A stretch of DNA of 44,693 nucleotides from Betaproteobacteria bacterium (GTDB lineage: Bacteria > Pseudomonadota > Gammaproteobacteria > Burkholderiales > SG8-39). Below, piece after piece: positions 2,111 through 40,295 of the stretch (positions are counted from its first letter, which is position 1; the number at the start of each line of letters is the position of its first letter). The notes beneath the pieces were generated by a model. The model had not been told where the DNA came from and ran no database searches. It saw nothing but the letters and a program-made list of their open reading frames with translations. The DNA is taken from NCBI GenBank assembly GCA_016189945.1, contig JACPRN010000047.1, forward strand, positions 1 to 44,693, given 5' to 3'. Made by a program: the position numbers and the translations under genes.

Positions 2111-2218
2111 TTGACGAAGGTGATGAGAATTTGCTAAAGACGTCTCACGATTTTGCAGTGCAATTGCAAGCAATTGCACTGCAAAATCGTGAGATTGAAT
2201 AAAGACAAAGCGGCATCG
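2111..2218 (-). repeat. Structured intergenic element, copy 1 (reverse orientation)
   Basis: Perfect 25-bp-arm palindrome 2143-2194 (tctcacgattttgcagtgcaattgc aa gcaattgcactgcaaaatcgtgaga). Flanked by TTGACG at 2111-2116 and gagattgaataaagacaaag. Shares its architecture with six other copies. Boundaries +/-10 nt. Confidence 0.9.
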
Positions 2219-2258
2219 ACGTTTATTCCGGCCAGTTCGGTTTAGAAAGGAGAACGCA

Positions 2259-3047
2259 ATGGCATCATCAGTATTGGTCGAAAGCCGCTCGGAATCGACC
2301 GCATGGCTGCGCATCAATCGGCCCGAGAAGCGCAACGCCGTGAGCGGCGAGGTGATCGAAGCGACGATCGCCGCCCTGGCGCGGCTCAAGGACGATGCGG
2401 AAGTCCGCTGCGCGGTCATCACCGGCGCAGGCGACATCTCCTTCAGCGTCGGCCTCGATTTCAAGTACCTGCTGCGCAAGCACGAGACCGGCGAAGGCGC
2501 CGATTTCCTCGACATGCTCAGGGCGATCTACGAGTTTCCGAAAATCGTGATCGCGGCGGTGAACGGCTATTGCCTCGGCGGCGGAATCAACATCCTGTGC
2601 GCCTGCGACCTCGCGATCGCCTCGGAGTGCGCGCTCTTCGGACTGCCGGAAGTGGTCCACGGCGGCCCGCCGGGGCTGGTGGTCGGCCCGGTGATGCGCA
2701 CGGTCGCTAGGAAGCACGCCTTCGAGCTGAACCTGATGGGAAAACGCAACTGGGACGCCGCCACCGCCGAGCGCAGGGGGCTGGTGAACGCGGTGGCGCC
2801 GCACGCGGAACTGGAGGCGGTGGTGCAGCAGTGGGCAGACGAAATCGCCGCCTGCCCGCCCACTTCGGTCGAATACACCAAGCGCATCTGCCAGGAAGTT
2901 CCGGACAAAGTTTCCGGATACATCGACGGCATCGTCTTTACGCGCGAAATCGCCATGGAGCAGCGCCGGCTCTCGCCCGCGTTCGACAACGGGCTGAAAG
3001 CGTTTCTCGGCGGCAGGCGGATCAATTTCACCAAGAGCAAGCCGTGA
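2259..3047 (+). CDS. Enoyl-CoA hydratase/isomerase (crotonase) family protein
   Basis: Motifs RINRPEKRNAV, VITGAGDISFSVGLD, AAVNGYCLGGG. AAGGAG at 2247-2252 precedes ATG 2259. Confidence 0.9.
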   Translation: MASSVLVESRSESTAWLRINRPEKRNAVSGEVIEATIAALARLKDDAEVRCAVITGAGDISFSVGLDFKYLLRKHETGEGADFLDMLRAIYEFPKIVIAAVNGYCLGGGINILCACDLAIASECALFGLPEVVHGGPPGLVVGPVMRTVARKHAFELNLMGKRNWDAATAERRGLVNAVAPHAELEAVVQQWADEIAACPPTSVEYTKRICQEVPDKVSGYIDGIVFTREIAMEQRRLSPAFDNGLKAFLGGRRINFTKSKP

Positions 3048-4255
3048 CAGCGTCTGCGCTGCCGCTTTCGGGCATTCGCGTCCTGGAGTTGGGGACGGTG
3101 ATCGCCGGCCCGGCGGTCGGGCTGTTCCTCGCCGACCTGGGCGCCGATGTCGTTTCGATCGAAAACCCGCGCGCCGATCCGTTTCAGGTCGCTCGCCCGA
3201 GCACCGCTTTCCTCCGGCGCAACAAGCGCAGCCTCACGATCGACCTGGCGAGGCCGGCGGGCAGGGACCTTTTTCTCGACCTCGTGCGCACGGCCGACGT
3301 GGTGGTCGAGAACTACGCTCCCGGCGCGGTCGAGCGCATCGGCGTCGGCTACCAGGCCGCGTCCGCCGTCAATAACCGGATCGTCTACTGTTCCATCAAG
3401 GGGTTCCTGCCCGGCCCCTACAGCACGCGCCTGGCCGCAGACGAGCTGGCGCAGATGATGGGAGGCCTCGCCTACATGACCGGGTTGCCGCGCAAGCCGA
3501 TGCGCGCCGGGGCCTCGATCACCGATCTCGGCGTGGCCTCGTTCGCGACCATGGCGATCCTCGCAGCGCTGGTGCAACGCGAGCGCTCGGGGATCGGGCA
3601 GCACATCCACGGGGGGCTGTTCGAAACCGTCGCCTTCTGGATGAGCCAGCACCTGGCGATCCTGGGCGCGACCGGCACGGCGCCCGAGCCGACCTCGGTG
3701 CGGGGCGTGTGGGAGCAGATGCGCTGGCCGATCTACGACGTGTTCGATGCGGCCGAGGGCCGGCAGGTGTTCGTCGGCATCCTGAACGACAAGCAGTGGG
3801 CTTCATTCTGCGCCGAGTTCGACCTCGGTTCGCTGAAAGACGATCCGGATCTGCAGACCAACGAGCAGCGGCTGCATTCGCGCCAGCGTCTGCTCGACCA
3901 CCTCGGGCCGCTGTTGCGGAATTGCGCGAGCGACGAGCTGATGGGGCGGCTGGAGCGCGCCCAAGTGCTTTTCGCCCCGATCAACAGCCCGGCCGACCTG
4001 CTCGCCGATCCTCATCTGCGCGCGACCGGCCGGTTTCTTCAGACCGAATTCAAGGGAAAGCGCTTCCCGCTGCCGGCGCTTCCGCTGCAGAGCAGCGCCT
4101 ATCGCCTTGGGATCCGCCACCAGCCGCCGCCCCCCGGAAAGGATACCCTGGCGCTGCTCGAGGAGTCCGGCTATGACCGCGAGCGCGTCGCCGAGCTTCG
4201 GCGGCAGGGCGTGATTCAAGTTGCGGGAAATTCGAAACAGGAGGACGAGCGATGA
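3044..4255 (+). CDS. Family III CoA-transferase (CaiB/BaiF-like)
   Basis: Frame of ORF 2831..4255. Typical N-terminus LSGIRVLELGTVIAGPAVGLFLADLGADVVSIENP. GTG 3044 overlaps the upstream stop (GTGA). Start inferred. Confidence 0.85.
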   Translation: MTASALPLSGIRVLELGTVIAGPAVGLFLADLGADVVSIENPRADPFQVARPSTAFLRRNKRSLTIDLARPAGRDLFLDLVRTADVVVENYAPGAVERIGVGYQAASAVNNRIVYCSIKGFLPGPYSTRLAADELAQMMGGLAYMTGLPRKPMRAGASITDLGVASFATMAILAALVQRERSGIGQHIHGGLFETVAFWMSQHLAILGATGTAPEPTSVRGVWEQMRWPIYDVFDAAEGRQVFVGILNDKQWASFCAEFDLGSLKDDPDLQTNEQRLHSRQRLLDHLGPLLRNCASDELMGRLERAQVLFAPINSPADLLADPHLRATGRFLQTEFKGKRFPLPALPLQSSAYRLGIRHQPPPPGKDTLALLEESGYDRERVAELRRQGVIQVAGNSKQEDER

Positions 4256-5289
4256 AACGATCGACGATACGCAATTGCGCGCGGCTTCTCGCCGCACGAG
4301 CCCTGGCCGCAGCAGCGCTCGCGGCCCTGACCGCGGTCTTCTCTCCGATCGCGCACCCGGCGGCGCCGGCGAAGAAAATCGCGCTCAAGACGGCGTTCAC
4401 CAATACCGGGGCGGCGAGCGCGCCGCTGTGGGCGGCGCAGGACGGCGGGTATTTCGCCGAGGAAGGGCTGGAGGTCACGATCGCCCGCATCCAGGCCGGA
4501 GCCCCGGTCATGGCGGCGATCCAGAACGGCGAGGTGCCGATCGGCTACATCGGCGCCAACTCGGTGATCGAGGCCAATCTGCGCGGCGCTTCCTTCGTGA
4601 TCGTCGGCGGATTCATGAGCCGGCTGGGCTACAAGCTCTACACCATCGCCGCGGTCGAGCGCGCCGAGCAGTTGAAAGGCAAGGCCCTGGGGACGAGCAA
4701 TTTCGGCTCCATCACGCACGTCGCTGGGCAGGTCGCGACCGAACATCTGGGGATCAAGGACGCGGTCAAGTACATTCAGACCGGAGGACAGCCCGAGACC
4801 CTGGCGGCAATGAAGGCCGGAATCGTCCAGGGCGGAGCGTTCCAGCCGCCGGAGGACTTGAAGGCGAAGGAAGCGGGGTTCCGCGAGCTGGTCGACGTGG
4901 GCGCGATCGGGGTTGCTTTCCAGACCAGCGCCATCACCAGCACGCGCAAGTGGGCGCGCGAAAACCCGGAGGTGATCGAGCGCTATCTGCGGGCGCTCAT
5001 CAAGGCGACGCATCGCCTGCGCACCGACAAGGAGTTCGCCATCGCGACCATCGCCAAGAACAGCCGCACTGACAATCGACAAATCCTCGAAACCGCTTAT
5101 TCGTACTTCGCCGACAAGTGGACCCCGGACGGCATCCCGTCGACGCCGGGAATGGAGCGCGTTCTGCACTTCATCGCCGCGAAGAATCCCGCCGCTCAAG
5201 CCGCGAAACCGGAACAGTTCATGGACTTGACCATCGCCAACCGGATCAAGCAGAGCGGGCTGGTGGAAAAGCTCTACAAGGGCAAGTGA
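4252..5289 (+). CDS. ABC transporter periplasmic substrate-binding protein (NMT1/THI5-like, NitT/TauT family)
   Basis: N-terminal signal peptide (ARALAAAALAALTAVFSPIAHPA), then an SBP-like sequence KKIALKTAFTNTGAASAPLWAAQDGGYFAEEGLEV. ATG overlaps the upstream stop (ATGA). Confidence 0.8.
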   Translation: MKRSTIRNCARLLAARALAAAALAALTAVFSPIAHPAAPAKKIALKTAFTNTGAASAPLWAAQDGGYFAEEGLEVTIARIQAGAPVMAAIQNGEVPIGYIGANSVIEANLRGASFVIVGGFMSRLGYKLYTIAAVERAEQLKGKALGTSNFGSITHVAGQVATEHLGIKDAVKYIQTGGQPETLAAMKAGIVQGGAFQPPEDLKAKEAGFRELVDVGAIGVAFQTSAITSTRKWARENPEVIERYLRALIKATHRLRTDKEFAIATIAKNSRTDNRQILETAYSYFADKWTPDGIPSTPGMERVLHFIAAKNPAAQAAKPEQFMDLTIANRIKQSGLVEKLYKGK

Positions 5290-5323
5290 TCCGGTCCGAG
5301 GCGGGCATTCGCAGGGAGTTTGA

Positions 5324-6535: not shown

Positions 6536-6583
6536 GATGTCGGGCCATTCAGGTATTAAACCGAAACCATGGGAGGTGGGCCG

Positions 6584-7090
6584 ATGCAACCGGCACTGAG
6601 CGCCGCAGAGATCATCCGCGAAATCAAACGGGCCGGGATCCGGTTCATCGTCGCGCTTCCGGACCGCACCACGAGCGAGCACCTGCTCAAGCCGATGCTC
6701 GAGGATCCTGATTTCCGGGTGGTGCAGGTGTGCAAGGAAGACGAAGGGCTTTCGATCTGCTGCGGGCTCTACAGCGCAGGGCACCGCGCGTTGCTCCTGA
6801 TGCAGCACACCGGACTCCTCGATTCGATCAATGCGCTGCGCGGATCGGGGGTGGAGGGCCGAAATCCGGTCTGCATGATGGTCGGCCTGCTGCAGTTGGA
6901 ACCCGGCGTCAAGCCGACCGAATCGAAGCGCTACGGCCTGCGCATCGTCGAGCCGGTGCTCGATGCGATGAAGGTCGAGCATCACCTGCTGCAGTCCGAC
7001 GACGACATCGAGAAAATGGCGCCGGCGATCGAAAAAGCCTATGGCACGGAGACGCCGCTCGTCCTGCTGATCGCAACGGAGCCAAGCTGA
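6584..7090 (+). CDS. TPP-dependent decarboxylase, alpha (pyrimidine-binding) subunit, sulfopyruvate/phosphonopyruvate decarboxylase-like
   Basis: Frame of ORF 6569..7090. Sequence IRFIVALPDRTTSEHLL...CKEDEGLSICCGLYSAGHRALLLMQHTGLL resembles the ComD-type half of split TPP enzymes. GGAGG at 6572-6576 favours ATG 6584. Confidence 0.75.
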   Translation: MQPALSAAEIIREIKRAGIRFIVALPDRTTSEHLLKPMLEDPDFRVVQVCKEDEGLSICCGLYSAGHRALLLMQHTGLLDSINALRGSGVEGRNPVCMMVGLLQLEPGVKPTESKRYGLRIVEPVLDAMKVEHHLLQSDDDIEKMAPAIEKAYGTETPLVLLIATEPS

Positions 7091-7662
7091 TGACCATGAA
7101 ACGGGATGATTGCCTGAAGGCCCTCGCGCGCCAGCGCACGGGGGAGATCGTGGTCGCGGTGTACAAAGCAGCGCAGGAATGGATTCAGATCGCCCCGCAC
7201 CCGCTCAATTACACGTTTACCGGCGCCATGGGACAGGGCTCGTCGCACGGGCTGGGGCTCGCCTTGGGGCGGCCCGACAAGCGCGTCGTCGTCCTCGACG
7301 GCGACGGCAGCCTGCTCATGAACCTGGGCACGCTGGTCACGATCGCCAATGCGGCGCCGAAGAATTTCGTCCACTGCGTGTTAGAGAACGGGACTTACGA
7401 GACCAACGGCGCGGTGCCGATTCCCGGCGCCGGGAAAATCAGCTTTAGCGCATTCGCGCGCGCTGCCGGTTATCCGAAAACCTACGCAATCTCGTCCCTG
7501 GAAGAATGGGAGCGCGAACTGGGGACGATCCTGCACGAACCGGGGCCGATTCTCGTCGACCTCAAAGTCGAGCCCGCCGGAAAATACGCGGAGGATTTTC
7601 CCCGGCTCTACGACCTCAAGCACCGCGAAGCTTTCGGCCGCGCCCTGCGCGAGAGCCGCTAG
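7090..7662 (+). CDS. TPP-dependent decarboxylase, beta (diphosphate-binding) subunit
   Basis: Frame of ORF 6730..7662. TPP-binding motif LDGDGSLLMNLGTLVTIANAAPKNFVHCVLENGTYETNG. ATG 7090 overlaps the stop TGA 7088-7090. Confidence 0.8.
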   Translation: MTMKRDDCLKALARQRTGEIVVAVYKAAQEWIQIAPHPLNYTFTGAMGQGSSHGLGLALGRPDKRVVVLDGDGSLLMNLGTLVTIANAAPKNFVHCVLENGTYETNGAVPIPGAGKISFSAFARAAGYPKTYAISSLEEWERELGTILHEPGPILVDLKVEPAGKYAEDFPRLYDLKHREAFGRALRESR

Positions 7663-7717
7663 CGCCGCGCGCCGCCCGGAGCGCTCAGCCGGGCGGGGCG
7701 CGGAATCGGCTGGACCG

Positions 7718-7739
7718 AAAAAACGGGCTTATTGCCCGC
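7718..7739 (-). terminator. Candidate rho-independent terminator for the small lipoprotein gene
   Basis: Minus-strand reading is GCGGGC AATAA GCCCG followed by TTTTTT, starting 6 nt after the stop at 7745. The stem is short (5-6 bp). Confidence 0.5.
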
Positions 7740-7744
7740 TGTTC

Positions 7745-7990: not shown

Positions 7991-8068
7991 GTCGATACTC
8001 CTGATGAAAAGTCGGGAATTCCGGACGGCCGGATTCGGCCGTCTCGACGGCATCGAGGCTCTCTGCCC

Positions 8069-8281: not shown

Positions 8282-8448
8282 CGCTCTTACTCCTGTAGAT
8301 GTGAAGGGGGAATCGTCGGCGGGCGGATTTGGCCTCCTCGCCGCCCGGCATTGCACCACGCAAATGTGAACCCTCGATTGCCGATGGCGGGCGTTTGGTA
8401 TCGAACCGAGTGCAAACATTGCCTACTGTTGCGCAGGGGCCGCCTTGT

Positions 8449-8465: not shown

Positions 8466-8508
8466 TCCCTTGTTCACCCCTCTGCGAGCGGTGTTAAATG
8501 GCGCCGAA

Positions 8509-11881: not shown

Positions 11882-11917
11882 TGGTGCTTATTCCAATTCG
11901 AGCCAGTCGGAATCATA

Positions 11918-12030
11918 GGTGTTGTCCTTTTGCCTTTATTCAATCTCCACGCTTTCGCGAAGTTGCTTCCAGCAACTTCGCGAAAGCGTGGAGACGAAGT
12001 TACAAACCCAATTCCCGCCACGTTCGTCAA
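11918..12030 (+). repeat. Structured intergenic element, copy 2 (forward orientation)
   Basis: Perfect 23-bp-arm palindrome 11944-11994 (tctccacgctttcgcgaagttgc ttcca gcaacttcgcgaaagcgtggaga). Left flank cttttgcctttattcaa. Right tail caattcccgccacgttcgtcaa ends at 12030. Confidence 0.9.
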
Positions 12031-12046
12031 TCCTCCCCCGAATCAC

Positions 12047-13255: not shown

Positions 13256-13292
13256 GCCGGGCTTCCAGCCATAAATGCGATCATGAACCAGT

Positions 13293-13404
13293 GGTGTTGT
13301 TCTTGCCTTTAACCAATCTCACGATGTTGCAGTGCAATTGCTTGCAATTGCACTGCAACATCGTGAGACATAATTAGAAGCAAATTCCCGCCGCCACTGT
13401 CAAC
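13293..13404 (+). repeat. Structured intergenic element, copy 3 (forward orientation)
   Basis: Perfect 25-bp-arm palindrome 13317-13368. Differs from copy 1 by one compensated pair. Left flank cttgcctttaaccaa. Right tail gcaaattcccgccgccactgtcaac ends at 13404. Confidence 0.9.
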
Positions 13405-13430
13405 ACTCCTCCAGTAAATGCCTGCCCCGA

Positions 13431-21103: not shown

Positions 21104-21145
21104 AAAGAGGTGTCAGCCGTTCGCGGCTGACACCTCTTTTTTCTG
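21104..21145. terminator. Strong rho-independent terminator between convergent genes
   Basis: Perfect 16-bp stem aaagaggtgtcagccg / cggctgacacctcttt (21104-21119 and 21124-21139), loop ttcg, then a T-run through 21142. It lies 44 nt after the CHRD gene stop and 15 nt beyond the stop of the convergent UbiD gene. The T-tail is much better on the + strand. Confidence 0.85.
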
Positions 21146-22602: not shown

Positions 22603-22650
22603 TGACAGCTCTCCCAATGGGGTCAGGCCCCTTTCTTTCCTTTCTTTCTC

Positions 22651-23418
22651 TCAACCCGGCATCGCCGAGCGGATGCGCTCGGCGGCCTGCCGCAGAGGAA
22701 CCAGGAATTTCCGCTTTGCCGCCGCTTCGTCATAGGTCCCCGAAGTGAAGGAGACGCTGATCGCCGCCACGGCCGCGCTGGCGGCGTCGCGCACCGGAAC
22801 GGCGATGCCGCAGATCGCCGGATCGAGCTCGCCATCGACCCAGGCGTAGCCTTGCCGCTGGACGATCTCCAGCGCGCCCTTGAGTGCGCCTGGTTTGGTG
22901 ATCGAGCGCGGCGTACGAGGCTCGAGTTCCGCAACCTCCAGATAGCGGCGCAGCGCCTGCTTGTCCAGATGAGCAAGCAGCACCCGCCCCAGGGACACGA
23001 CGTGCGCCGGCAGGCGGCTGCCGACCGACAGGTTCATAGCGAGGATCCGCCGCGACGGAATTCGCAGCACGTACACGATCTCCTCGCCATCGAGCACCGC
23101 CATCGAGCAGGATTCCTGCGCACCGCTGCGCAGATCTTCGAGCGCCGGCTGGGCATAGCGCCAAAACGGCAGCGAATCGAGATAGGACAGCCCGAGCTTG
23201 AGCGCTCGCGGCGTGAGCGCGAAAAGCCTGCCGTCGCTCTGGGCGTAGCGCTGCGCGCACAGCGTCATCAGCAAGCGGCGCACCACGCTACGCGGCAGTT
23301 TGGTCGCCTCGGCGATCTGCGCGATGGTCTTGCGCGGTGCACCCGCGCCCATCGCCTCGATCACCTCCAGTCCACGCGCGAAAGCGCGCACGAAGTCTTC
23401 GCTTTCCGGAGTCGCCAT
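22651..23418 (-). CDS. IclR-family transcriptional regulator (PcaR-like)
   Basis: N-terminal wHTH DFVRAFARGLEVIEAM...IAQIAEATKLPRSVVRRLLMTL, plus a C-terminal effector domain. No obvious SD sequence before the ATG. Confidence 0.9.
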   Translation of the reverse strand: MATPESEDFVRAFARGLEVIEAMGAGAPRKTIAQIAEATKLPRSVVRRLLMTLCAQRYAQSDGRLFALTPRALKLGLSYLDSLPFWRYAQPALEDLRSGAQESCSMAVLDGEEIVYVLRIPSRRILAMNLSVGSRLPAHVVSLGRVLLAHLDKQALRRYLEVAELEPRTPRSITKPGALKGALEIVQRQGYAWVDGELDPAICGIAVPVRDAASAAVAAISVSFTSGTYDEAAAKRKFLVPLRQAAERIRSAMPG

Positions 23419-23431
23419 GGGAGTGAGCAGC

Positions 23432-23537
23432 GCTGTTGCTCTTGCCCTTAATCAATCTCCACGGTCTGGTGCGGTTGCTTGCAACTGCACCAGACCGTGG
23501 AGACGTATCAAAAAGCGAATTCCCACCGCTTCGCCAG
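23432..23537 (+). repeat. Structured intergenic element, copy 4 (forward orientation)
   Basis: Palindrome 23456-23503, 23-bp arms with a single G:T position (23474 vs 23486). Left flank cttgcccttaatcaa. Right tail gcgaattcccaccgcttcgccag, where the GTCAA end is degenerate. Confidence 0.85.
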
Positions 23538-23549
23538 CATCCCTCGAGG

Positions 23550-23578
23550 TTGACACGATCCGCTCCAAGTTATTAAAT
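23550..23578 (+). promoter_or_regulatory. Candidate sigma70-type promoter for the MaoC/ligase operon
   Basis: TTGACA at 23550-23555, 17-nt spacer, TTAAAT at 23573-23578, about 70 nt upstream of ATG 23648. Followed by the 11-nt palindrome ccgcattgcgg, a possible operator. Prediction by eye only. Confidence 0.35.
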
Positions 23579-23647
23579 GACCGCATTGCGGATATTGAAG
23601 TTCGTCTAGCGGTTATTCTACGCAGACCACAACAAAAGAGCCAGCCC

Positions 23648-24118
23648 ATGCCAGAGAGCTTCGAAACCGACTTCTGGAAGGACGCCGAACGGCGAAAGGT
23701 TTGGGACGACATCGTGCCGGGCGAGCCGCGCAAGACCATTCCCTACACCCTCACGCTGGAGGCCATCCAGAAATACTGCCGCGCGGTCGGCGACCTGCAT
23801 CCACTGTATTTCGACGAAGCCTATGCGAAGGCTACCCCTTGGGGGGGATTGATCGCGCCGCCTTCGATTCACATTCTGCTCATGTTCTCCTGCACGCCGG
23901 CCGACGACTGGATGCGCAGTCCCGGCACCATCAACGCCGGCCAGTCCTGGAGCTACAACATTCCGGCGCGCCCCGGCGATACCATCACGCTTGCCGCGCG
24001 CGCGCTGGACAAATTCATCAAGAAAGACCGCCTGTTCGTCATCCATGACAACGTGTTCTTCAACCAGAACGCCCAGGTGATCTGCTCCGGCCGCGGCTGG
24101 ACCATACGTCCGATCTGA
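23648..24118 (+). CDS. MaoC-like hotdog-fold protein (N-terminal-type hydratase subunit)
   Basis: Frame of ORF 23300..24118. Start at ATG 23648 (MPESFETDFWKD...). Sequence LTLEAIQKYCRAVGDLHPLYFDEAYAKATPWGGLIAPPS. Confidence 0.8.
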   Translation: MPESFETDFWKDAERRKVWDDIVPGEPRKTIPYTLTLEAIQKYCRAVGDLHPLYFDEAYAKATPWGGLIAPPSIHILLMFSCTPADDWMRSPGTINAGQSWSYNIPARPGDTITLAARALDKFIKKDRLFVIHDNVFFNQNAQVICSGRGWTIRPI

Positions 24119-24126
24119 GTACGCCC

Positions 24127-24570
24127 ATGAACGACGCCTACGACGCCCTCAAGCAAGACGACATAGTGAACGGTCCGAAATTCCAGGTATCGCGCGAATC
24201 GATCCGCGCATTCTGCGAGGCATCGCTCGATTTCAATCCCCTGCACTGGGACGACGAGTACATGAAAAGCAGTTTCGGCAGGACCCGGTTCGGGGGCATC
24301 ATCATGCACGGAATGACCAACTTCGGGCTCATCACGCGCATGCTCACCGACTGGCTCTATCCGCTCGGCGGCGTGCACCGGCGGCTGGAGACGCGCTGGA
24401 AAACGCCGGTCAGGCCCGGCGACGTCATCCGGCCCAGCGCGCGCATCACGGGAAAGAAGCGAACCCAGCGAAGCCGCTGGGTGACGCTCGAGATCGAAGT
24501 CAAGAATCAGCGCGGCGAAACCGTCGCCGTCGGCGAAGCGATGGCCGAGTTTCCGCCGCAGGGCAGGTAG
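24127..24570 (+). CDS. MaoC-family (R)-specific enoyl-CoA hydratase/dehydratase subunit
   Basis: Sequence SRESIRAFCEASLDFNPLHWDDEYMKSSFGRTRFGGIIMHGM is a typical MaoC dehydratase signature. Starts 8 nt after the upstream gene. Confidence 0.85.
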   Translation: MNDAYDALKQDDIVNGPKFQVSRESIRAFCEASLDFNPLHWDDEYMKSSFGRTRFGGIIMHGMTNFGLITRMLTDWLYPLGGVHRRLETRWKTPVRPGDVIRPSARITGKKRTQRSRWVTLEIEVKNQRGETVAVGEAMAEFPPQGR

Positions 24571-24580
24571 CAAAAGCGCA

Positions 24581-26116
24581 ATGATTCTGGGACGCTGCCT
24601 GGCGCGCAATGCGCTGCTCTATCCCGACAAGCCCGCCATCGTTTCCGCCGACGGAAGCACGCTCACCCACGCAGCGCTCGCCGAGCGCGTCAATCGCCTG
24701 GCCAATGCGCTCGCCGCGGAAGGCATGGCCAAGGGCGACAAGATCGCCATCCTGGCGCGCAATTCGCCTGAGTACCTGCAGGTCTATTTTGCCGCGGCAA
24801 AAATCGGCGCTCCGATGGTGCCGATCAACTTCCAGCTCAAAGCCCCCGATATTCATTACCGGCTGGAGCACTCCGATGCGCGCGCGCTGGTCGTGGAGAG
24901 CGAATTCCTGGGGCTGCTCGACGGCCTGCCGGATGGCGCGCGCGAGGCGCTCGGCGCGCGCATTTTCGTTCGCGGCGGCGACGGCGCACGCGCGCGAGCG
25001 CTCGACGAGCTGATCGATTCGGCGCCCGCGACCGAGCCCGAGGCGACGCTCTCGCCGGAAGACACGCTCTACATCGGCTATACCTCAGGCACCACCGGCC
25101 CTTCGAAGGGGGCGCTGGTCTCCCACCGGGCGATCGTGGCCGGCTATCTCTACAAGGCGCTCGACTACCGGCTGGGTCGCCGGGACGTCAATCTCGATCC
25201 GGGGCCGTTCTGGCACTCGGCCCCGCGCGATTTTGCTTCGCTCGCAATCTACCTCGGCGGCACCTGCGTGGTCACGCGCGGGTTCGAGGCGCGCGAATTC
25301 TACGAACTGGTCGAGCGCCACAAGGTGAGCAATTCGTTCATGGTGCCGACCATGTACCAGCTTCTAACCGCATTCGAGGACGCGGGCCGCTACGACGCCT
25401 CCAGCCTGCGGGTGCTGATCTCCGGAGGATCGCCGCTCCCGAGCGCGGTGAAGGACCGGGTAGTCGAGCGCTTCGGGCCGATCCTGCACGAGTTCTACGG
25501 CGCGACCGAAACCCGCATCATCACCAACATCACCGCGACGGAACTCTCCGCGCACAAGCGCGCGGTCGGCCGGCCCATCCGCGATGTGGAACTGCGCATC
25601 CTGGACGAGGCCGGGCGCGACGTGTCCGCGGGCGCGGTCGGCGAGGTCTTCGTGCGCGGCCCGGGGCTGTTTTCCGGCTATTACAAGGACCCGGAGCGGA
25701 CCAGGAAAAGCCATCGCGGCGAGTGGTTTTCGCTCGGCGATCTGGGCCGGCTCGACGAACAGGGATATCTCTATCTGGTCGATCGCAAGCAGGACATGAT
25801 CATCAGCGGCGGGGAGAACATCTATCCGAGCGACATCGAGGAAGTGTTGCTCGGGTTCCCGGGGGTGAAGGAAGCGGCGGTGATCGGCACGCCCGACGAA
25901 ACTTGGGGCGAGCTGGTGACCGCGATCGTGGTCCCGCGCGAGGGCGAAGCGGTGCCGGAGCGCGAACTGATCGAGTACTGCGGCGCGCGTCTGCCAAGCT
26001 ATATGAAGCCGCGGCGCGTAGAATTCGTCGCAGCGCTGCCGCGCAATCCGGTGGGCAAAGTCCTGCGGCGCGTGCTGCGCGAACCGTACTGGCAGGGACA
26101 GGAAGCGAGAATATAG
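24581..26116 (+). CDS. AMP-dependent acyl-CoA synthetase/ligase
   Basis: AMP-binding motif YTSGTTGPSKGA and hinge region GDLGRLDEQGYLYLVDRKQDMIISGGENIYP. 511 aa. Confidence 0.95.
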   Translation: MILGRCLARNALLYPDKPAIVSADGSTLTHAALAERVNRLANALAAEGMAKGDKIAILARNSPEYLQVYFAAAKIGAPMVPINFQLKAPDIHYRLEHSDARALVVESEFLGLLDGLPDGAREALGARIFVRGGDGARARALDELIDSAPATEPEATLSPEDTLYIGYTSGTTGPSKGALVSHRAIVAGYLYKALDYRLGRRDVNLDPGPFWHSAPRDFASLAIYLGGTCVVTRGFEAREFYELVERHKVSNSFMVPTMYQLLTAFEDAGRYDASSLRVLISGGSPLPSAVKDRVVERFGPILHEFYGATETRIITNITATELSAHKRAVGRPIRDVELRILDEAGRDVSAGAVGEVFVRGPGLFSGYYKDPERTRKSHRGEWFSLGDLGRLDEQGYLYLVDRKQDMIISGGENIYPSDIEEVLLGFPGVKEAAVIGTPDETWGELVTAIVVPREGEAVPERELIEYCGARLPSYMKPRRVEFVAALPRNPVGKVLRRVLREPYWQGQEARI

Positions 26117-26141
26117 TCACTTACGAGTTACAGGTATATTG

Positions 26142-26242
26142 TTGACGATTCAGGGGAAGAGTTTGCCGTTGTTATGGTCTCGTGTTTTCGCGCAGTTGCA
26201 ACTTCGCAACTGCACGAAAGCACGAGCTTGAAAGAAGGCAAG
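26142..26242 (-). repeat. Structured intergenic element, copy 5 (reverse orientation)
   Basis: TTGACG at 26142-26147. Palindrome 26178-26226 with 21-bp arms and two non-Watson-Crick positions, loop aacttc. Then cttgaaagaaggcaag. Confidence 0.85.
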
Positions 26243-26296
26243 ACCAGTCCCTTTATGCCGGCTTAGCTTGGAAGCAGTTTCATAAGGGAGGGCTCA

Positions 26297-27265
26297 ATGA
26301 TCCGACTGATGAGAGTTGTTGCGGCGTGCTGTGTGCTTTTCGGTTTCGGCGTTGGCAGCCACGCTCAATCGTTTCCCGCCACGGCGGTAAAGATCATCGT
26401 TCCGTTTCCTCCCGGCGCAACCACGGACATCGTTGCGCGAGAGGTCGCCAATCAGCTCGGGCCTCGCTGGCGCGTTCCGGTCATCGTCGAGAACAAGGCG
26501 GGCGCGAGCGGAATCATCGGCTCCGAGCAGATCGCCCGCGCCGTGGGCGATCCGCATCTGCTCATGGTGACGGCAACCCACCACGTCATCAATCCGAGCC
26601 TGTACAAGAAACTGCCCTACGACCCCAGGCGCGACTTCACCTCGCTTGCATTGATCGCCAGCGCTCCCAACGTGCTGATCGTCAATTCGGCTTTCCCGGC
26701 ACAAACAGTCGCCGAACTGATCAAGATCGCGAAGGAAAAGCCGGCGACGATCGGCTTCGGATCGACCGGCATCGGAGGCGCGAACCACCTGGCGGGCGAA
26801 CTGTTCCAGGTGATGTCGGGGGCGAAGCTCTTTCACATCCCCTACAAGGGGTCCGCACCGGCGATGAACGATCTGCTCGCCGGGCACGCGCCCGTCATGT
26901 TCGCCGGGCTCGCCTCGGTCATACCGCACATGCAGTCGGGAAGGCTGCGCGCGCTCGGCGTAACCTCGATGAAGCGCGTGCCGACCGCCCCGGACATCCC
27001 GACCCTGGACGAGGCGGGGGTCAAGGGCTTCGAGGTGCTGTCGTGGTTCGGGCTCTACGGACCGCCGCAACTGCCCGCCGCGGCGGTGGCGAAAATCACC
27101 GCCGATGTCGGCGCGGTGCTCGCCTCGGCGCACATCAAGACGAGCTTCAACCGGCAGGGCGTCGATCCGGGAGCGATGAGCCAGCCGGAGTTCGCGCGTT
27201 ACGTCGAGACCGAAATGGACAAGTGGGGCCGTGTCATCGAGCACGCGAAGATACCGAAGCAATAG
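26297..27265 (+). CDS. Bug-family (TctC-like) tripartite tricarboxylate transporter substrate-binding protein
   Basis: Signal peptide, then the Bug hallmark FPATAVKIIVPFPPGATTDIVAREVANQLG...VENKAGASG. AAGGGAGGG precedes ATG 26297. Confidence 0.95.
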   Translation: MIRLMRVVAACCVLFGFGVGSHAQSFPATAVKIIVPFPPGATTDIVAREVANQLGPRWRVPVIVENKAGASGIIGSEQIARAVGDPHLLMVTATHHVINPSLYKKLPYDPRRDFTSLALIASAPNVLIVNSAFPAQTVAELIKIAKEKPATIGFGSTGIGGANHLAGELFQVMSGAKLFHIPYKGSAPAMNDLLAGHAPVMFAGLASVIPHMQSGRLRALGVTSMKRVPTAPDIPTLDEAGVKGFEVLSWFGLYGPPQLPAAAVAKITADVGAVLASAHIKTSFNRQGVDPGAMSQPEFARYVETEMDKWGRVIEHAKIPKQ

Positions 27266-27313
27266 GGGCGCTGGGCGGTGCTTCCCGGGACAAGCCATAC
27301 GAACTTGAACCAC

Positions 27314-27422
27314 CGATGCCGTTTCTCGCAGTTACTCAATCTCCACGTTTTCGTTCAGTTGCTCGCAACTGAACGAAAACGTGGAGACCTATTTAAAGGC
27401 AAGTTCCCGCCGCTGCCGTCAA
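27314..27422 (+). repeat. Structured intergenic element, copy 6 (forward orientation)
   Basis: Perfect 23-bp-arm palindrome 27340-27387, loop tc. Right tail tttaaaggcaagttcccgccgctgccgtcaa ends at 27422. The left flank shares CGATGCCG with copy 1. Confidence 0.9.
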
Positions 27423-27436
27423 TACGCATCCGATAA

Positions 27437-30016
27437 GTGAAACGCGTGACTGCGACCGACGACGCCTGGATCCCCTCCTCCTGCGCGCTTTGCTACGGAT
27501 CCTGCTCGATCCTCGCTCACCGGGTCGACGGTGTGGTGGTAAAGGTGGAAGGCAATCCCGGGAGCGTGGTTGGCCGTGGCCGCCTGTGCGGCAAAGGCGT
27601 CTCGGGAATCATGACGCACTACGATCCGAACCGGCTGAAAAAACCGCTGCGCCGCACCAACCCCGCGAAGGGGCTCGACGAGGACCCGCGCTGGAAGGAA
27701 ATAAGCTGGGACGAGGCACTGCATGAGATCGCCGCGGTCCTGAAGCGCCTGCGCGCAGACGACGCGCGCAAGCTCATGGTCCAGCGCACTACCACGGTGA
27801 GCGCGAGCCGCATCCCGTTTGCGGCGTTCGCATCGGCTTTCGGCACGCCCAACGTCTCCACCGCAGGCGGCGGGCTGCACTGCGGCAACGGCACGCATTT
27901 CTTTGCCGGGATGATGCACGCCTCCTGGGGAATCGTTCCCGATTTTGCGTACTGCAACTACGCCCTCTATTTCGGCGCCTCCAAGGGCCACGGCGCGGGC
28001 CACGCTTCGAGCTCCAACATGGGACTCGCGGCCGAGGCGCGCGCCCGCGGCATGAAGCTCGTGGTGGTCGATCCGATGTGCAACTTCGCCGCTGCAAAAG
28101 CAAACGAATGGGTGCCGCTGCGCGTCGGTACCGACGGCGCGCTGGCGCTGGCGATGTGCCAGGTCCTGGTCAATTAACACATCCTCATCTACCAGACTTA
28201 ACTGCAGGCGAAGACCAACGCGCCCTACCTGATCGGACCCGACCAGCTCTACGCGCGCGACCCGGCTTCGGGCAAGCCGCTCGTCTGGGACCACGCGGCC
28301 GGCGCGGCGCTCCCCTACGGCGATGCCGATCCCGCCGAGACGGCCCTGGAAGGCGATTTCGCGGCGAACGGCGTCCGCTGCCAGCCCGCTTTCCAGAAGC
28401 TGAAGGAACACCTGGGGAAATTCACTCCGGAGTGGAGCGAGGAAATCACCACGGTTCCGGCAGCCAGAATCCGCCGCCTCGCTGCCGAGTTCGGCCGCGA
28501 AGCGCGCATCGGCAGCACCATCGTGGTCGAAGGGACGACCCTGCCCTACCGGCCGGTCGCCGCGGTCGCCTTCCGCGGCGCGCAGGGCCACATGAATTCG
28601 GTGTACAACTTCTTCGCCATCGATTTGCTCAACCAGTTGGTGGGCGCCTGCGACGTGGTGGGCGGCTGCCTGGGATTCAATCCGGCCTGCAAGGGTTATC
28701 CGGAAACCGGCCGGCTGCGCTACGTTCCCAAGGCGGGACCCGACGGCCTGATGACGGTCGGCATCTGGATGGGACACCACTATCCCTATCCCCTCGCCGA
28801 GCCGCGCCTGCCGCAGAACATGGCCTTGAACGATCTGTTCGTGGCCGCCCGGCACACGCCGTTCCTCGATTCCGACGACCGGGAAGATTTGTGGGAAAGG
28901 CTCGAGCTCGGCTACCGCCCGGAGGTGATGCTCAACTTCGGCGCCAATCTGCTGATGAGCATCGCAAACCGGGAGACGGTGGCGAGGTCGCTTGCGCAAT
29001 ACGAGTTCATGGTGTCGATCGACCTGTTCGAGACCGAAACCACGCGCTTTGCCGATATCGTGCTGCCCGACTGCAGCTACCTCCAGTCGATCGATTCGCG
29101 TTCCAACTATCCCTTCATCTTCAGCCTGCCCGCGGGGATGGGCGAATGGTGCTGGCCGATCCGCCAGCCGGTGCTCGAACCGGAGGGCGAGCAGCGCCGC
29201 TTCCAGGACGTGCTGTTCGAACTGGCGGACCGCATCGGTTTGCGCGCCGACGTGAACGCCGCCCTGAACGCCTCCTTGAATCTCGCCCCTGAATATCGCC
29301 TGCAGGGAGATCGCCGCTACACGTGGGAAGAGGTCTGCGACGCCGATCTGAAAAGCGCTTTCGGCGCGGCGCGCGGGCTCGACTGGTTCAAGGAGCACGG
29401 CGTCATCAAATGGCCCAAGCGGCCCGAAGAAGTGTATTGGCGAGCGTTCGTCGATGTGCGCGTGCCGATCTACCTCGAGTTCATGCGCTCAGCCGGAGAG
29501 AAAATCGCGGCCATCTGCGAGCCGCGCGGGCTGAAGATCCCGCGCGAGTATTACCAGCCGCTGCCCGAATTTCTGCCCTGCCCTTCGCACCTCTGCAAGT
29601 CGCCGGGATTCGACCTGTACGCTTTCTATTATCGCGACACGATTCACACCAACAGCTTTACGATGGAGAACCCCTGGCTCGATGAGGCCGCGCGCCTCGA
29701 TCCCTTTTCCTACACCATCGCCATCAACGCCGACACCGGCAGGCAAAAAGGGCTGCGCGACGGCGCGCTGGTGCAGGTGGAGACCGAGAGGGGGAAAAAG
29801 GTGAAAGGCCGGGCGCATCTCACCCAGGCGATTCATCCCGAAGGGTTGGGAATCGCCGCGTGCGCGGGCCATTGGGGCGACGGCATGCCCGTGGCCAAGG
29901 GCAAAGGCGTATTCTTCAACGAATTGCTGGAACTCGATTGGGATCACGCGAGTCCGGCGAACCTGAGCCTGGACCTGTGCGTGCGGGTGAAAGTCACGCA
30001 GATGGAGGATGCATGA
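27437..30016 (+). pseudogene. Stand-alone molybdopterin (bis-PGD) oxidoreductase, interrupted by two in-frame TAA codons
   Basis: ORFs 27437..28177 and 28523..30016 are in the same frame. Reading through TAA 28175-28177 and TAA 28199-28201 gives one continuous 860-codon protein. It has an N-terminal 4Fe-4S motif CALCYGSCS...CGKG and a C-terminal molybdopterin dinucleotide-binding domain. No Tat signal and no adjacent FeS subunit gene. It could instead be recoded or a sequencing artefact. Confidence 0.8.
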
Positions 30017-34398: not shown

Positions 34399-34416
34399 TT
34401 CTGGATGATGGGGCCT

Positions 34417-37353: not shown

Positions 37354-37558
37354 CGGCACCTCTCGCGAGGCGGGGAACCCCACGCTTGGTGAGCAATGCC
37401 GCAGTCTAGACAATGCAGCCCCGCCCTCGTAGTAGGGTTTGGCCGCAATGCTCATTAGGGGAGTTGTGTAGAATTGCCGCGAAAACACCCCGGAGATGCA
37501 GGATCACGGCGTCCGACAGCGCTTCTCGGACTTCGGTTGACCTCGCTTAACGACGCTC

Positions 37559-37578
37559 AAAAAGGGGGTCTGACCCCG
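37559..37578 (-). terminator. Weak candidate terminator after the small exported protein gene
   Basis: Minus-strand reading is GGGGT CAG ACCCC followed by CTTTTT, immediately after the stop at 37583. The stem is only 5 bp. Confidence 0.3.
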
Positions 37579-37582
37579 CGTC

Positions 37583-37864
37583 TCACCTGCGCCCTCTTTT
37601 TTCCGAGCCGCCGCGCTCGGGCCGCTCGCGGTAGACCTCGCGCCCGTGCTGAGTCACGTCGCGCCGCAATTGACGGCGTTCCTCGGGCGACATGCGCTCG
37701 TGTTCGCGCGCACGTTCCGGCGCACCGGAGGCGCCGCGCGGCGGGGCGAACCAGCCCGGCGGGGCAGCCTGTCCTCCACGCTGGCCGCCCTGCTGCTGCT
37801 GCGCCTGCACCGGCCAGCACGCCGCCAGCAGAATCGCGAGCATGCCTACGGTCCGGAATTTCAC
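37583..37864 (-). CDS. Small exported Gln/Arg-rich protein (93 aa)
   Basis: Frame of ORF 37583..38077. GTG 37864 lies 4 nt after AAGGAGG. Signal peptide VKFRTVGMLAILLAACWPVQA, then QQQQGGQRGG...RMSPEERRQLRRDV. No family recognised. Confidence 0.6.
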   Translation of the reverse strand: MKFRTVGMLAILLAACWPVQAQQQQGGQRGGQAAPPGWFAPPRGASGAPERAREHERMSPEERRQLRRDVTQHGREVYRERPERGGSEKRGRR

Positions 37865-38126
37865 GGGTCCTCCTTTTCGGGCTCTCAAGCCCGCCGTTGC
37901 CGCCTCGCGGCGGTGACTATCGCCCTGCGGCCTGCCGGTCATTATGCCGCGGATCGCGCCCGCGGCGCCATCGCCCGGCAGACCACCCGCAATAAGATAA
38001 AGTCCACACGTGAATGATCTGTGTAGGCCGGCGTCCTGTCTGTAAGAAATTGTTTCCATTGCGGCCTGGGTAACCAATTGTTACGCCTCGCTTTGAGCGC
38101 GGCGGCTTGCCGGCTACCATAGCGGT

Positions 38127-38858
38127 ATGTCGGAGCACAAACCCAGGATCCTGGTCGTCGATGACGACTTGCGCTTGCGCGACCTGCTGCAGCGCTACTT
38201 GAGCGCGCAGGGCTTTGCCGTGTCGGCCGTGGCCGAGGCGGCGAGCATGGACAAGGTCCTGGCGCGCGAGCGTTTCGACCTCCTGGTACTCGACCTGATG
38301 CTCCCCGGCGAGGACGGACTCTCGGTGTGCCGGCGGCTGCGCGGCGCGAATGACGCGATTCCGATCATCATGCTCACCGCCAAAGGCGAGGAAGTCGACC
38401 GCATCATCGGCCTGGAGATGGGTGCCGACGATTACCTTCCCAAGCCCTTCAATCCGCGCGAACTGGTGGCGCGCATCAACGCCGTGCTGCGGCGGCGCGC
38501 CGCGCCGCTGCCGCCCGGGGCGCCCGCGGCCAGCGCCGAGTCGGTGTCCTTCGGCGGCATGACGGTCAATCTCGCCACGCGAACCCTGGAGCGCGACGGC
38601 AAGACCGTTTCCCTCACCACCGGCGAATTCGCCCTGCTCAAGGTGCTGGTGACCCATCCGCGAACGCCGCTGTCGCGCGACAAGCTGATGGAGCTCGCGC
38701 GCGGCCGCGAATACGACGTGTTCGACCGCTCCATCGACGTGCAGGTGTCGCGTCTGCGCAAGCTCATTGAGCGCGATGCCGCCAGGCCGGCATTCATACA
38801 GACCGTGTGGGGCTTCGGCTACGTCTTCGTCCCCGACGGAGGCAGCCAGGCGAAATGA
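38127..38858 (+). CDS. ompR: Osmolarity response regulator OmpR
   Basis: Near-colinear with enterobacterial OmpR as recalled: ILVVDDDLRLRDLLQRYL, DLMLPGEDGLSVCRRLR, PKPFNPRELVARINAVLRR, SRDKLMELARGREYDVFDRSIDVQVSRLRK, IQTVWGFGYVFVPDG. Confidence 0.95.
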   Translation: MSEHKPRILVVDDDLRLRDLLQRYLSAQGFAVSAVAEAASMDKVLARERFDLLVLDLMLPGEDGLSVCRRLRGANDAIPIIMLTAKGEEVDRIIGLEMGADDYLPKPFNPRELVARINAVLRRRAAPLPPGAPAASAESVSFGGMTVNLATRTLERDGKTVSLTTGEFALLKVLVTHPRTPLSRDKLMELARGREYDVFDRSIDVQVSRLRKLIERDAARPAFIQTVWGFGYVFVPDGGSQAK

Positions 38859-40162
38859 GGCTGCGGCCGCGCTCCCTGCTGTGGCGCACTTTCCTGCTGC
38901 TCGCCGCGCTCGTGGTGCTCACCACCGCGGCATGGTTCGAAATCTTCCGGGCGTACGAAATCGAGCCGCGCGCGCGCCAGGTGGCGCAGAACATGGTCTC
39001 GGTCGTAAACCTCACGCGCGCGGCGCTCGTGACCGCACAGCCCGAGAAGCGCCGCGAGCTGCTGCAGGAACTGGCGCAGCGCGAGGCAATTCAGGTTTAT
39101 CCCTCGGAGGATGGAGAATCAATCGTCGCGCTTTCGGACCGGCCGCTGCTGCGCTTGGTGAGCGAGCGGGTGCGCGAGGAGCTTGGGCAGGAGACGCGCT
39201 TTGCCTCCAGCCGCGAAGGCCTGCGCGGCTTCTGGGTGACCTTTCGCATCGACGACGACGAATACTGGGTGCGCGTGCCGCGCGAGCGGCTGGAGCGCCC
39301 GATCGCGATCCAGTGGCTCGGGTGGGGAACTCTGGCGCTCGCGCTGTCGCTCCTGGCGGCCTATTTCATCGTCACGCGCATCAACCGCCCTTTGCGGGCG
39401 CTCGCTCTGGCCGCGGCGCAGATCGGCAAGGGCAGGCGGCCCGCGCCGCTGCCGGAATCGGGGCCCGATGAGATCCGCACGCTCTCGCGCGCATTCAACC
39501 AGATGTCGAGCGGTCTCGCCCGCCTGGACGAGGACCGCGCGCTGATTCTCGCCGGCGTCTCGCATGATCTGCGCACGCCGCTTGCGCGCCTGCGGCTGGG
39601 CCTGGAGATGAGCGGCGGCGACGAGCAGATGCGCCAGGGGATGAACGCCGATATCGAGGAGATGGACCGCATCATCGAGCAGTTTCTCGATTTTGCGCGC
39701 GCCGACGGCGGCGAGGCTCCCGAGCTGGCGCAGCTTTCCTCGCTCGCCGCGGCGAGCGCCGACCATCACATGAAGCTCGGCCACGCGCTTGCGGCCGACT
39801 GCAACCCCACGCCGCCGATCCCGCTCAAGCCCAAGGCCATGCACCGCGCCATCTCGAACCTCATCGACAATGCGCTGCGTTACGGCGGGGGCGAGGTGAA
39901 GCTGACCACGCGCGAGGAGCGCGGGAATTCGGTGCTCGAAGTGCACGACCGCGGCCCCGGAATCCCGGAGGGAGAAGCCGAGCGTCTGAAGCAGCCGTTC
40001 ACGCGCCTGGAGGCGTCGAGGAGCGGCCACAGCGGCTCCGGGCTCGGGTTGGCGATCGTCGATCGCATCGTGCGCGCCCACGGCGGGCGCTTCGATCTGC
40101 TCGCGCGCTCAGGCGGGGGCTTGACCGCGCGCATCGTGCTGCCGCTTGCGCGGGGAGGGTGA
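38855..40162 (+). CDS. envZ: Osmosensor histidine kinase EnvZ
   Basis: Frame of ORF 38807..40162. ATG 38855 overlaps the ompR stop (ATGA). HAMP region RAFNQMSSGLARLDEDR, H-box AGVSHDLRTPLARLRL, G-box GSGLGLAIVDRIV. Confidence 0.9.
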   Translation: MRLRPRSLLWRTFLLLAALVVLTTAAWFEIFRAYEIEPRARQVAQNMVSVVNLTRAALVTAQPEKRRELLQELAQREAIQVYPSEDGESIVALSDRPLLRLVSERVREELGQETRFASSREGLRGFWVTFRIDDDEYWVRVPRERLERPIAIQWLGWGTLALALSLLAAYFIVTRINRPLRALALAAAQIGKGRRPAPLPESGPDEIRTLSRAFNQMSSGLARLDEDRALILAGVSHDLRTPLARLRLGLEMSGGDEQMRQGMNADIEEMDRIIEQFLDFARADGGEAPELAQLSSLAAASADHHMKLGHALAADCNPTPPIPLKPKAMHRAISNLIDNALRYGGGEVKLTTREERGNSVLEVHDRGPGIPEGEAERLKQPFTRLEASRSGHSGSGLGLAIVDRIVRAHGGRFDLLARSGGGLTARIVLPLARGG

Positions 40163-40192
40163 GCGGCGAATGGCGCCTCAGCGGCTTGCGCG

Positions 40193-40295
40193 GCTGAGGA
40201 TTCCGGCAGAGATTTCGGCGCTGCATTGGTCTCGTGTTTTGGCGCAGTTGCAAAGGCGCAACTGCGCCAAAACACGAGATTGAAGAAAGGCAAAG
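40193..40295 (-). repeat. Structured intergenic element, copy 7 (reverse orientation)
   Basis: Perfect 22-bp-arm palindrome 40230-40279 (tctcgtgttttggcgcagttgc aaaggc gcaactgcgccaaaacacgaga), followed by ttgaagaaaggcaaag. The TTGAC end is degenerate (ctgagg at 40193-40198). Confidence 0.9.

Follow-up and report, generated by a model that had tools for sequence, protein, structure and literature searches.

The 44,693-nt stretch of DNA analysed here (the ‘window’: contig JACPRN010000047.1 of GenBank assembly GCA_016189945.1, from a Betaproteobacteria bacterium) has a G+C content of 65%, encodes TctC/Bug-family and RisS-type proteins typical of the Burkholderiales, and contains no tRNA or tmRNA genes. 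Dispersed between its genes are seven copies of a repeat centred on a long palindrome, which an initial annotation, made by reading the sequence, had described as an intergenic hairpin element. All seven hairpins were found again: the six best pairs in an inverted-repeat scan of the window coincide with six of the seven cores, five having arms that are 100% complementary (25, 25, 24, 23 and 22 nt in copies 1, 3, 2, 6 and 7, respectively, with loops of 2 to 6 nt throughout the window) and the sixth, in copy 5, being imperfect (approximately 26175 to 26222). The perfect arms of five copies, the single G:T position in copy 4, and the one compensated pair that separates the stems of copies 1 and 3 (T/G in one arm, A/C in the other) all stand as originally described; copy 5 is indeed imperfect, with a mismatch count, first given as two, of two to three depending on how the loop is drawn. 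Alignment of the window copies identified common flanking motifs, and a degenerate pattern built on these motifs matched five of the copies, against 0.00 expected from shuffles.

The repeat belongs to a family, uncatalogued in the resources searched, that is present in hundreds of copies per genome in a small Burkholderiales-like lineage of groundwater Betaproteobacteria that are uncultured. It appears to fit best among the selfish or semi-domesticated intergenic repeats of the REP/REPIN/MITE kind, and its most distinctive property is a palindrome whose two arms vary from copy to copy while remaining matched to one another.

A high-copy family of hairpin-centred repeats

A pattern that constrains only the top of the stem and the left flank was scanned against species-representative genomes and matched at least 91 loci. 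Among the matches listed, approximately 70 lie in the genome JACQTO01 (‘Betaproteobacteria bacterium NC_groundwater_1413’; ‘JACQTO’ below) and three in MEQZ01 (RIFCSPLOWO2_02_FULL_65_20), both of which are groundwater metagenome-assembled genomes, while the remainder are scattered singly across unrelated taxa, as is consistent with chance. Iterated nhmmer searches of the window and 0.67 Mb of loci yielded 143 non-overlapping copies, about 135 of them outside the window. Many contigs end within a copy, as would happen where a high-copy repeat breaks assemblies. The copies are old, those in the window being only 62 to 76% identical to any other copy.

Searches elsewhere were largely negative. 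The window and five loci gave no Rfam match at the gathering score, and permissive searches returned only generic miRNA-hairpin models far below threshold. In 2.9 million viral contigs the pattern matched 66 times, in every case by chance (a single weak hairpin being unrelated), and a left-end 23-mer had no match. The consensus is absent from 80 metagenome loci encoding relatives of the acyl-CoA synthetase of the window, and from 72,556 plasmids apart from its first 25 to 31 nt. Three Burkholderiales plasmids contain this left-end segment, the 28-mer CCTAAGCCGGACGAGCCGGAACCAAAC(A), by itself, 100% identical in pOLGA1 of Paraburkholderia phytofirmans and in a plasmid of Polaromonas sp. P1-6 (loci L238 and L239, positions 1501 to 1528 in both), the latter occurrence lying about 215 nt downstream of a tyrosine recombinase gene, and 92% identical in plasmid 4 of Variovorax WDL1 (L240, 2501 to 2525). 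Agreement this close between genera suggests either that the site has a function or that a mobile end is shared.

In the relatives the unit measures approximately 155 nt, with abrupt borders in conservation profiles anchored on the core, and is longer than the 100 nt or so first proposed. The unit is asymmetric and consists, in order, of CCTAAG, a left module of about 45 nt, the 22 to 25 bp palindrome, a right module of about 55 nt, and GACTAA; its consensus reads CCTAAGCCGGACGAGCCGGAACCAAgGAAGCTGGTTTTGCCGTTTATCAA-TCTCCCCTTTTCGTGCAGTTGC-nn-GCAACTGCACGAAAAGGGGAGA-CGAATTTAGAAACCAAATCTTCGCCAAATTTGTCAACAGTAaACTTGTAAGTGACTAA. The loop ranges from 0 to 7 nt across the family and measures 2 nt in 95 of 122 copies. 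The top (GTTGC..GCAAC) and the base (TCTC..GAGA) of the stem are nearly invariant, and the 12 pairs between them are occupied by up to four pair types. At least three subfamilies can be distinguished (a CCCC type; a GTG type, in which the loops are longer and the right flank is distinct; and, in the window, the CACG/ACGA types), and left-end modules that stand solo or in tandem, head-to-tail copies and one subfamily mosaic were all seen; the family is mosaic, in the manner of BIMEs.

The similarity between the youngest pairs of copies (about 94 to 95% identical) stops exactly outside CCTAAG and GACTAA. Both ends bear CTAA, in the same orientation, preceding GCCGG at the left and terminating the element at the right. 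No terminal inverted repeats are present, the left end (CCTAAGCCGGACGAGCC) sharing only TAG/TAA with the right end when the latter is reverse-complemented (TTAGTCACTTACAAG). Flanking direct repeats were no better than in shuffled pairs (5.71 versus 5.52), 14 of 72 copies have two identical terminal tetramers where 10.6 would be expected, and the rare variant ends, which match one another in some copies (CCAA/CCAA, CTGA/CTGA, TTAA/TTAA), are common to sister copies, as if passed on with the element. A target duplication is thus not demonstrated, and a long one considered at copy 5 found no family-wide support.

Three further ideas about the unit were set aside. A longer, autonomous version might have been represented by the sole split copy (L131, 6006 to 6225), in which about 85 nt of other sequence replaces the hairpin region between intact left (model positions 4 to 72) and right (94 to 159) parts; that insert contains no gene. 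A small open reading frame is not kept between copies, because the lengths of loop and stem vary, and in copy 2 of the window it reads without a stop. Finally, an extended outer helix (GAAG/CUUC plus UGGUUUU/GAAACCA) that appears in a single-sequence fold is lost from the consensus structure.

Co-variation of the palindrome arms

When the 122 copies with a hairpin were scored for mismatches, 88 proved to be perfect and 28 to have one mismatch, even though 82 distinct left arms were present among 112 copies. The two arms of a copy differ by 0.33 edits, versus 4.4 edits for arms drawn from different copies, a value as low as the former being reached in none of 1000 permutations. The arm co-variation proposed from seven copies was also put to a statistical test on an unbiased MAFFT alignment of 78 full copies, and it was borne out. 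RNAalifold retained only the central helix, with two-sided changes in 15 of its 22 pairs; 98.0% of cells were paired (88.0% in shuffles), 141 cells were compensated (19.5 in shuffles), the covariation score of 0.298 (versus 0.103) was equalled in none of 500 shuffles, and all slid controls collapsed. Pairwise differences per site amount to 0.24 and 0.34 in the two flanks and 0.17 in the arm. By simple arithmetic, independent decay at that arm divergence would leave approximately 3.7 broken pairs per stem, against the 0.33 observed.

Several features of the variation bear upon how the arms are kept matched. Each non-palindromic loop is about balanced in number with its reverse complement (TT 32 and AA 25; AC 8 and GT 7; AG 4 and CT 3; GA 4 and TC 2), and both forms of a loop are found on identical stems, for which the simplest reading is that exchange between the arms has inverted the loop repeatedly. 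Where stem length has changed, for instance by one more C or T in a run, the two arms have changed alike, and transversions, for which there is no wobble intermediate, account for many of the compensated changes. On the transcribed strand, the residual mismatches of copies in co-directional contexts comprise nine A:C and five G:U, with no excess of wobble pairs and hence no signature of RNA; on the element’s own ‘forward’ strand the corresponding counts are 21 G:T versus 10 A:C, which is suggestive only. Taken together, the flipping of loops, the compensated indels and transversions, and the lack of a G:U excess favour an explanation in DNA over one in RNA.

Some of the variation in the stems is inherited with the subfamilies (Mantel r between flanks and hairpin of 0.37 to 0.54), and recombination between copies also contributes, since the hairpin at one orthologous site has been swapped for that of another subfamily. 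The co-variation of the arms is probably, in the main, an effect at the level of DNA that a mutational mechanism explains. The original statement that a conserved structure with variable sequence ‘points to selection on a DNA or RNA hairpin’ is therefore half right: copying at the DNA level is favoured, and the part of it that concerned RNA finds no counterpart in the mismatches.

Gene ends, operon junctions and orthologous sites

That the copies are intergenic, as first noted for the window, holds for the family as a whole. The common polarity relative to transcription that had been noted for five of the window copies does not, and was an effect of small numbers: co-directional copies divide 31 versus 29 between the two orientations, alongside 31 copies between convergent genes and eight between divergent ones. 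Among the sampled loci, copies occupy 6% of divergent gaps, 25% of co-directional gaps and 35% of convergent gaps, so that occupancy rises with the number of gene 3' ends. Approximately 40% of contacts with gene ends lie within 10 nt. In 12 of 57 contacts with the left end (the gene running towards the full-length end) the left CCTAAG supplies the TAA stop codon, and in 10 of 35 contacts with the right end the stop is TAG, the reverse of the right CTAA; the Shine-Dalgarno sequence of the next gene often follows or spans the end of the element (...TTAAGGAG, ...CTTAGGAG). Consecutive genes of arn-like, flagellar (flgI/flgJ), lapB-ugd and MacB-type operons are separated by copies. The element settles beside the 3' ends of genes, often exactly at the stop codon or the Shine-Dalgarno junction, while regions that contain only promoters are avoided and either orientation is tolerated between the cistrons of essential operons. 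A specific link to TctC/Bug or transporter genes was rejected, because copies also occur in arn, flg, lapB-ugd and cysK-like contexts.

In a scan of copies 5 and 6, no promoter-like or terminator-like sites were called, which means that read-through must be tolerated. The stems are not followed by the U-tract of an intrinsic terminator, their tails reading GACGAATTTAG and ATTGATAAAC, in agreement with the initial annotation. The conserved TTGAC(A/G) motif was considered as part of a sigma-70 promoter and rejected, having no -10 box at 16 to 18 nt and no promoter call in the two copies scanned; a sigma-54 promoter was rejected, from reading of the sequence, for its wrong spacing.

Degenerate heptamer arrays (GAATCCT, AAATCCT or AGATCCT) flank many of the JACQTO copies on one or both sides, for example at about 4690 to 4720 and 7040 to 7075 of locus L122, about 7500 to 7535 of L139, and about 7080 to 7110 of L081. 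Their junctions with the element read AAATCC/TAAG... and ...CTAA/ATCCT (the slash marking the junction), as if the element had inserted into the arrays.

Three sites could be compared, as the initial annotation had proposed, between the window, a contig of JACQTO, a genome to which the window itself does not belong (L136; approximately 81 to 85% DNA identity to the window over 22649 to 29814), and a metagenome contig (L158) whose acyl-CoA synthetase is 83% identical, and both filled and empty sites were found. The junction between the MaoC and acyl-CoA synthetase genes comprises only 10 nt in the window and is filled by a family copy in JACQTO. Copy 4 is present only in the window and is absent from the orthologous site in both relatives. 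The site of copy 5 is filled in the window and in JACQTO and is empty in L158, where it reads TAA-GAGGAGG. The JACQTO orthologue of copy 5 (L136, 3620 to 3830; window, 26114 to 26264) is itself a mosaic, in which a distal flank of the window-like (GTG) subfamily is joined to a hairpin and proximal flank from the CCCC subfamily; this implies that one member of the family replaced another or was inserted within it. On these alignments, copies have been gained and lost at orthologous sites. The MaoC/acyl-CoA synthetase junction of L158 (1945 to 2130) is occupied by a different, unrelated repeat, with inverted GTCATTCC...GCGGGAATCC / ...GGGAATGAC units.

The positions and neighbours of the window copies are collected in Table 1.

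Table 1. Copies of the repeat in the window, with their hairpins and neighbouring genes
Copy	Extent	Strand	Hairpin	Neighbours and junctions
1	2111..2245	-	Perfect 25-bp palindrome, 2143-2194	ABC permease gene (stop 2089) and enoyl-CoA hydratase gene (start 2259); Shine-Dalgarno AAGGAG directly after the end of the copy
2	11894..12032	+	Perfect 24-bp palindrome, 11944-11994	Flanked by two minus-strand MacB/FtsX-type permease genes
3	13278..13425	+	Perfect 25-bp palindrome, 13317-13368	Fills the gap between ABC ATPase gene (stop 13431) and permease gene (start 13255)
4	23427..23537	+	Palindrome 23456-23503 with one G:T; both end modules missing	Divergent region adjoining IclR regulator gene
5	26114..26264	-	Palindrome 26178-26226	Profile match 26125-26264, the copy continuing to 26114 and its terminal TTAG providing the TAG stop (26114-26116) of the acyl-CoA synthetase gene
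6	27292..27440	+	Perfect 23-bp palindrome, 27340-27387	TctC-family gene (stop 27265) and molybdopterin oxidoreductase gene (start 27437); orientation relative to transcription opposite to that of copy 5
7	40193..40329	-	Perfect 22-bp palindrome, 40230-40279, 6-nt loop	Convergent genes: RisS-like kinase (stop 40162) and FecR-like gene (stop 40330), whose stop codon is abutted by the left end of the copy

Two other features of the window were observed. Between convergent genes at 21104 to 21139 lies a perfect 16-bp inverted repeat with a 4-nt loop (AAAGAGGTGTCAGCCG...CGGCTGACACCTCTTT), which is unrelated to the family and resembles the stem of an ordinary bidirectional terminator. The reading frame of the molybdopterin oxidoreductase (27437 to 30016) is interrupted: its Fe4S4 and N-terminal domains end at 28177, and the rest continues in the same frame beyond a second stop (about 28199 to 28201), so that the gene could be a pseudogene, an assembly error or a case of recoding.

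Proposed mobilisation and maintenance of the family

The account to which we incline, with moderate confidence, is that of a non-autonomous, hairpin-centred repeat that would be mobilised in trans by a structure-specific enzyme acting on single strands, with its palindrome kept perfect mainly by template switching within the palindrome itself and with any effects on mRNA being secondary. Of the candidates initially put forward, the ‘REP/MITE-like element mobilised in trans’ is the best fit to what was found, namely hundreds of copies, broken assemblies, and presence or absence at orthologous sites. Movement, whether present or past, would proceed through an enzyme supplied in trans that recognises the central hairpin together with the CTAA-bearing ends on single-stranded DNA; the likeliest type would be an HUH/Y1 enzyme (IS200/IS605 or RAYT-like) or a similarly oriented, duplication-free recombinase. 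Template switching within the palindrome, or gene conversion, would either pass a change in one arm on to the other or remove it, and the same arm-to-arm process would invert the loop. Superimposed on this process may be recombination between copies and, as the family spreads, selection for copies able to form the hairpin; any effect in mRNA (where a strong hairpin without a U-tract could be a barrier to 3'-exonucleases or an RNase III site, as is known for E. coli REPs) would be secondary.

A number of observations weigh against this account. The window contains no transposase, as had been noted, and a tblastn search with IS200 TnpA and E. coli RAYT queries found no Y1 or RAYT transposase below an E value of 0.7 in 0.72 Mb, which represents less than a fifth of one genome and makes for a weak test. 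The GTAG tetranucleotide that RAYTs require immediately 5' of the palindrome (Corneloup et al. 2021, PMC8266576) is absent, the consensus reading ...TTTATCAA/TCTCC on one strand and ...AAATTCG/TCTCC on the other. Convincing subterminal hairpins of the kind found at IS200/IS605 ends are also missing: at the left end the prediction contains only a 4-bp CCGG stem, at the right only weak stems, and the consensus structure retains the central hairpin alone. The divergence of even the youngest pairs of copies provides no evidence of current movement, and the genomes compared at orthologous sites are too dissimilar for insertion, deletion and recombinational replacement to be separated or for the target site to be fixed. 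Finally, template switching is a process that we infer from patterns in the sequences.

Three other explanations were weighed. The one that deserves most attention, although we regard it as rather unlikely, is a host regulatory RNA element, in which selection would act on the hairpin in mRNA, whether as a stabiliser between cistrons, an RNase III processing site or a terminator that lacks a U-tract, and in which copies would spread or persist by tuning the relative expression of neighbouring cistrons. The E. coli REPs do protect upstream mRNA, and the copies described here lie at gene 3' ends and between the cistrons of operons, co-vary strongly, and have a very stable predicted RNA fold (-58 kcal/mol, z = -7); furthermore, a palindrome forms the same hairpin whichever strand is transcribed, so that random orientation does not by itself speak against a role in RNA. 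However, stepwise compensation in RNA does not produce inverted loops or compensated indels and transversions, and it is not accompanied here by an excess of G:U over A:C on the transcribed strand. The asymmetric flanks (45 to 55 nt) are conserved regardless of which strand is transcribed, the same conserved operon junctions are empty in close relatives, copies occur in tandem and as mosaics, and there is no terminator-like tail.

Co-variation also bears on the idea, which we judge improbable, of a binding or structural DNA site for a host protein (a nucleoid-associated protein, gyrase, or IHF as at BIMEs) or for a site-specific recombinase, with either the palindrome or the conserved left-end 28-mer as the recognised site. 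The nearly invariant top and base of the stem would suit such a site, as would the 28-mer that stands alone on the Paraburkholderia and Polaromonas plasmids, in the latter by a tyrosine recombinase gene; but a site for a dimer should conserve its sequence and not co-vary as the middle 12 pairs do, the copy number, assembly breaks and presence or absence of copies fit a proliferating repeat, and no binding protein has been identified. The most doubtful of the three is a DDE-type MITE of the classical sort (IS5-like with a YTAR target, for example), whose 4-bp target duplication, CTAA, would by now be taken for a part of the element itself. Such an origin is suggested by the CTAA at both ends, by the stop codons and heptamer arrays rich in CTAA or CTGA beside many copies, and by the matching variant ends of some. 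Nevertheless, the element has no terminal inverted repeats inside the CTAA, the orientation of CTAA relative to the element is always the same, variant ends are common to sister copies as if inherited, and neither the identity of the end tetramers nor the flanking direct repeats rise appreciably above their expected or shuffled values.

The observations may also be combined into one joint reading, which we hold to be unlikely and in which the family would represent a mode of mobility not described before. In this combination, a hairpin-centred single-strand element would insert in fixed orientation at CTAA (in a GC-rich genome, mostly at stop codons and Shine-Dalgarno junctions) through an enzyme other than a RAYT or a classical IS200/IS605 TnpA, the palindrome that it recognises would be kept perfect by built-in template switching between the arms, and the 28-mer, conserved across Burkholderiales genera, would be the module for enzyme binding or targeting.

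The closest known kind of element is the REP/REPIN class, which is mobilised by RAYT (TnpA-REP) transposases. Like REPs and REPINs, the family comprises hundreds of short intergenic copies with a conserved hairpin, lacks terminal inverted repeats and an internal transposase, has no detectable target duplication, displays tandem and clustered arrangements, and consists of old, diverged and vertically inherited copies. Compensatory changes across hairpins are common in REPINs (Bertels & Rainey 2011, PMC3116915), so the co-variation of the arms is not unprecedented. The family differs in having no GTAG 5' of the palindrome and no RAYT in the 0.72 Mb searched, in its long conserved asymmetric flanks with CTAA ends, and in its architecture, a REPIN being formed from two short imperfect REPs with a spacer of tens of nucleotides, whereas here a single perfect palindrome of 22 to 25 bp encloses a loop of 0 to 7 nt. 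With GTAG absent and the palindrome lacking a spacer, the consensus places the family outside the REPs by definition.

Other systems share part of this design. The ends of IS200/IS605 elements and PATEs are likewise asymmetric, without inverted repeats or duplication, and obey a hairpin-dependent single-strand logic, and IS200/IS605 elements have a fixed orientation to a short conserved tetranucleotide at the left junction and a similar one at the right; they differ in bearing subterminal hairpins at each end, where here the sole strong hairpin is central and no TnpA was detected in the loci searched. Correia elements of Neisseria and ERIC/IRU elements of enterobacteria are also intergenic repeats (100 to 170 nt) that are often co-transcribed, form long RNA hairpins and can bear stop codons or translation signals at their ends. 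In contrast to the present family, they are true inverted-repeat MITEs (with a TA duplication, in the case of Correia), the whole element being an imperfect palindrome; they show neither perfect maintenance of arms nor flipping of loops, and have no sequence similarity to the window family. Both loop orientations between identical stems, and mutations copied from arm to arm, are known from hairpin-associated minute inversions in chloroplast non-coding DNA and from the template-switch correction of quasi-palindromes in E. coli mutagenesis studies. These processes are known at single loci; to our knowledge, they have not been described as maintaining a whole family of dispersed repeats.

Three points are of most interest: copies touch stop codons, they saturate operon junctions, and their left-end 28-mer is identical on the Paraburkholderia and Polaromonas plasmids. 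If the account preferred here is correct, the family would be a natural example of a repeat that saturates the cistron junctions of essential operons (arn, flagellar, transporter) without breaking them, and the contact with stop codons and the cross-genus 28-mer would offer handles for finding the mobilising enzyme. It would also mean that perfect ‘co-variation’ can arise from the mechanics of DNA (self-correction and loop inversion) and not from selection on RNA structure, which would stand as a warning for covariation-based discovery of non-coding RNAs in metagenomes, where an element of this kind would score as a superbly supported RNA helix.

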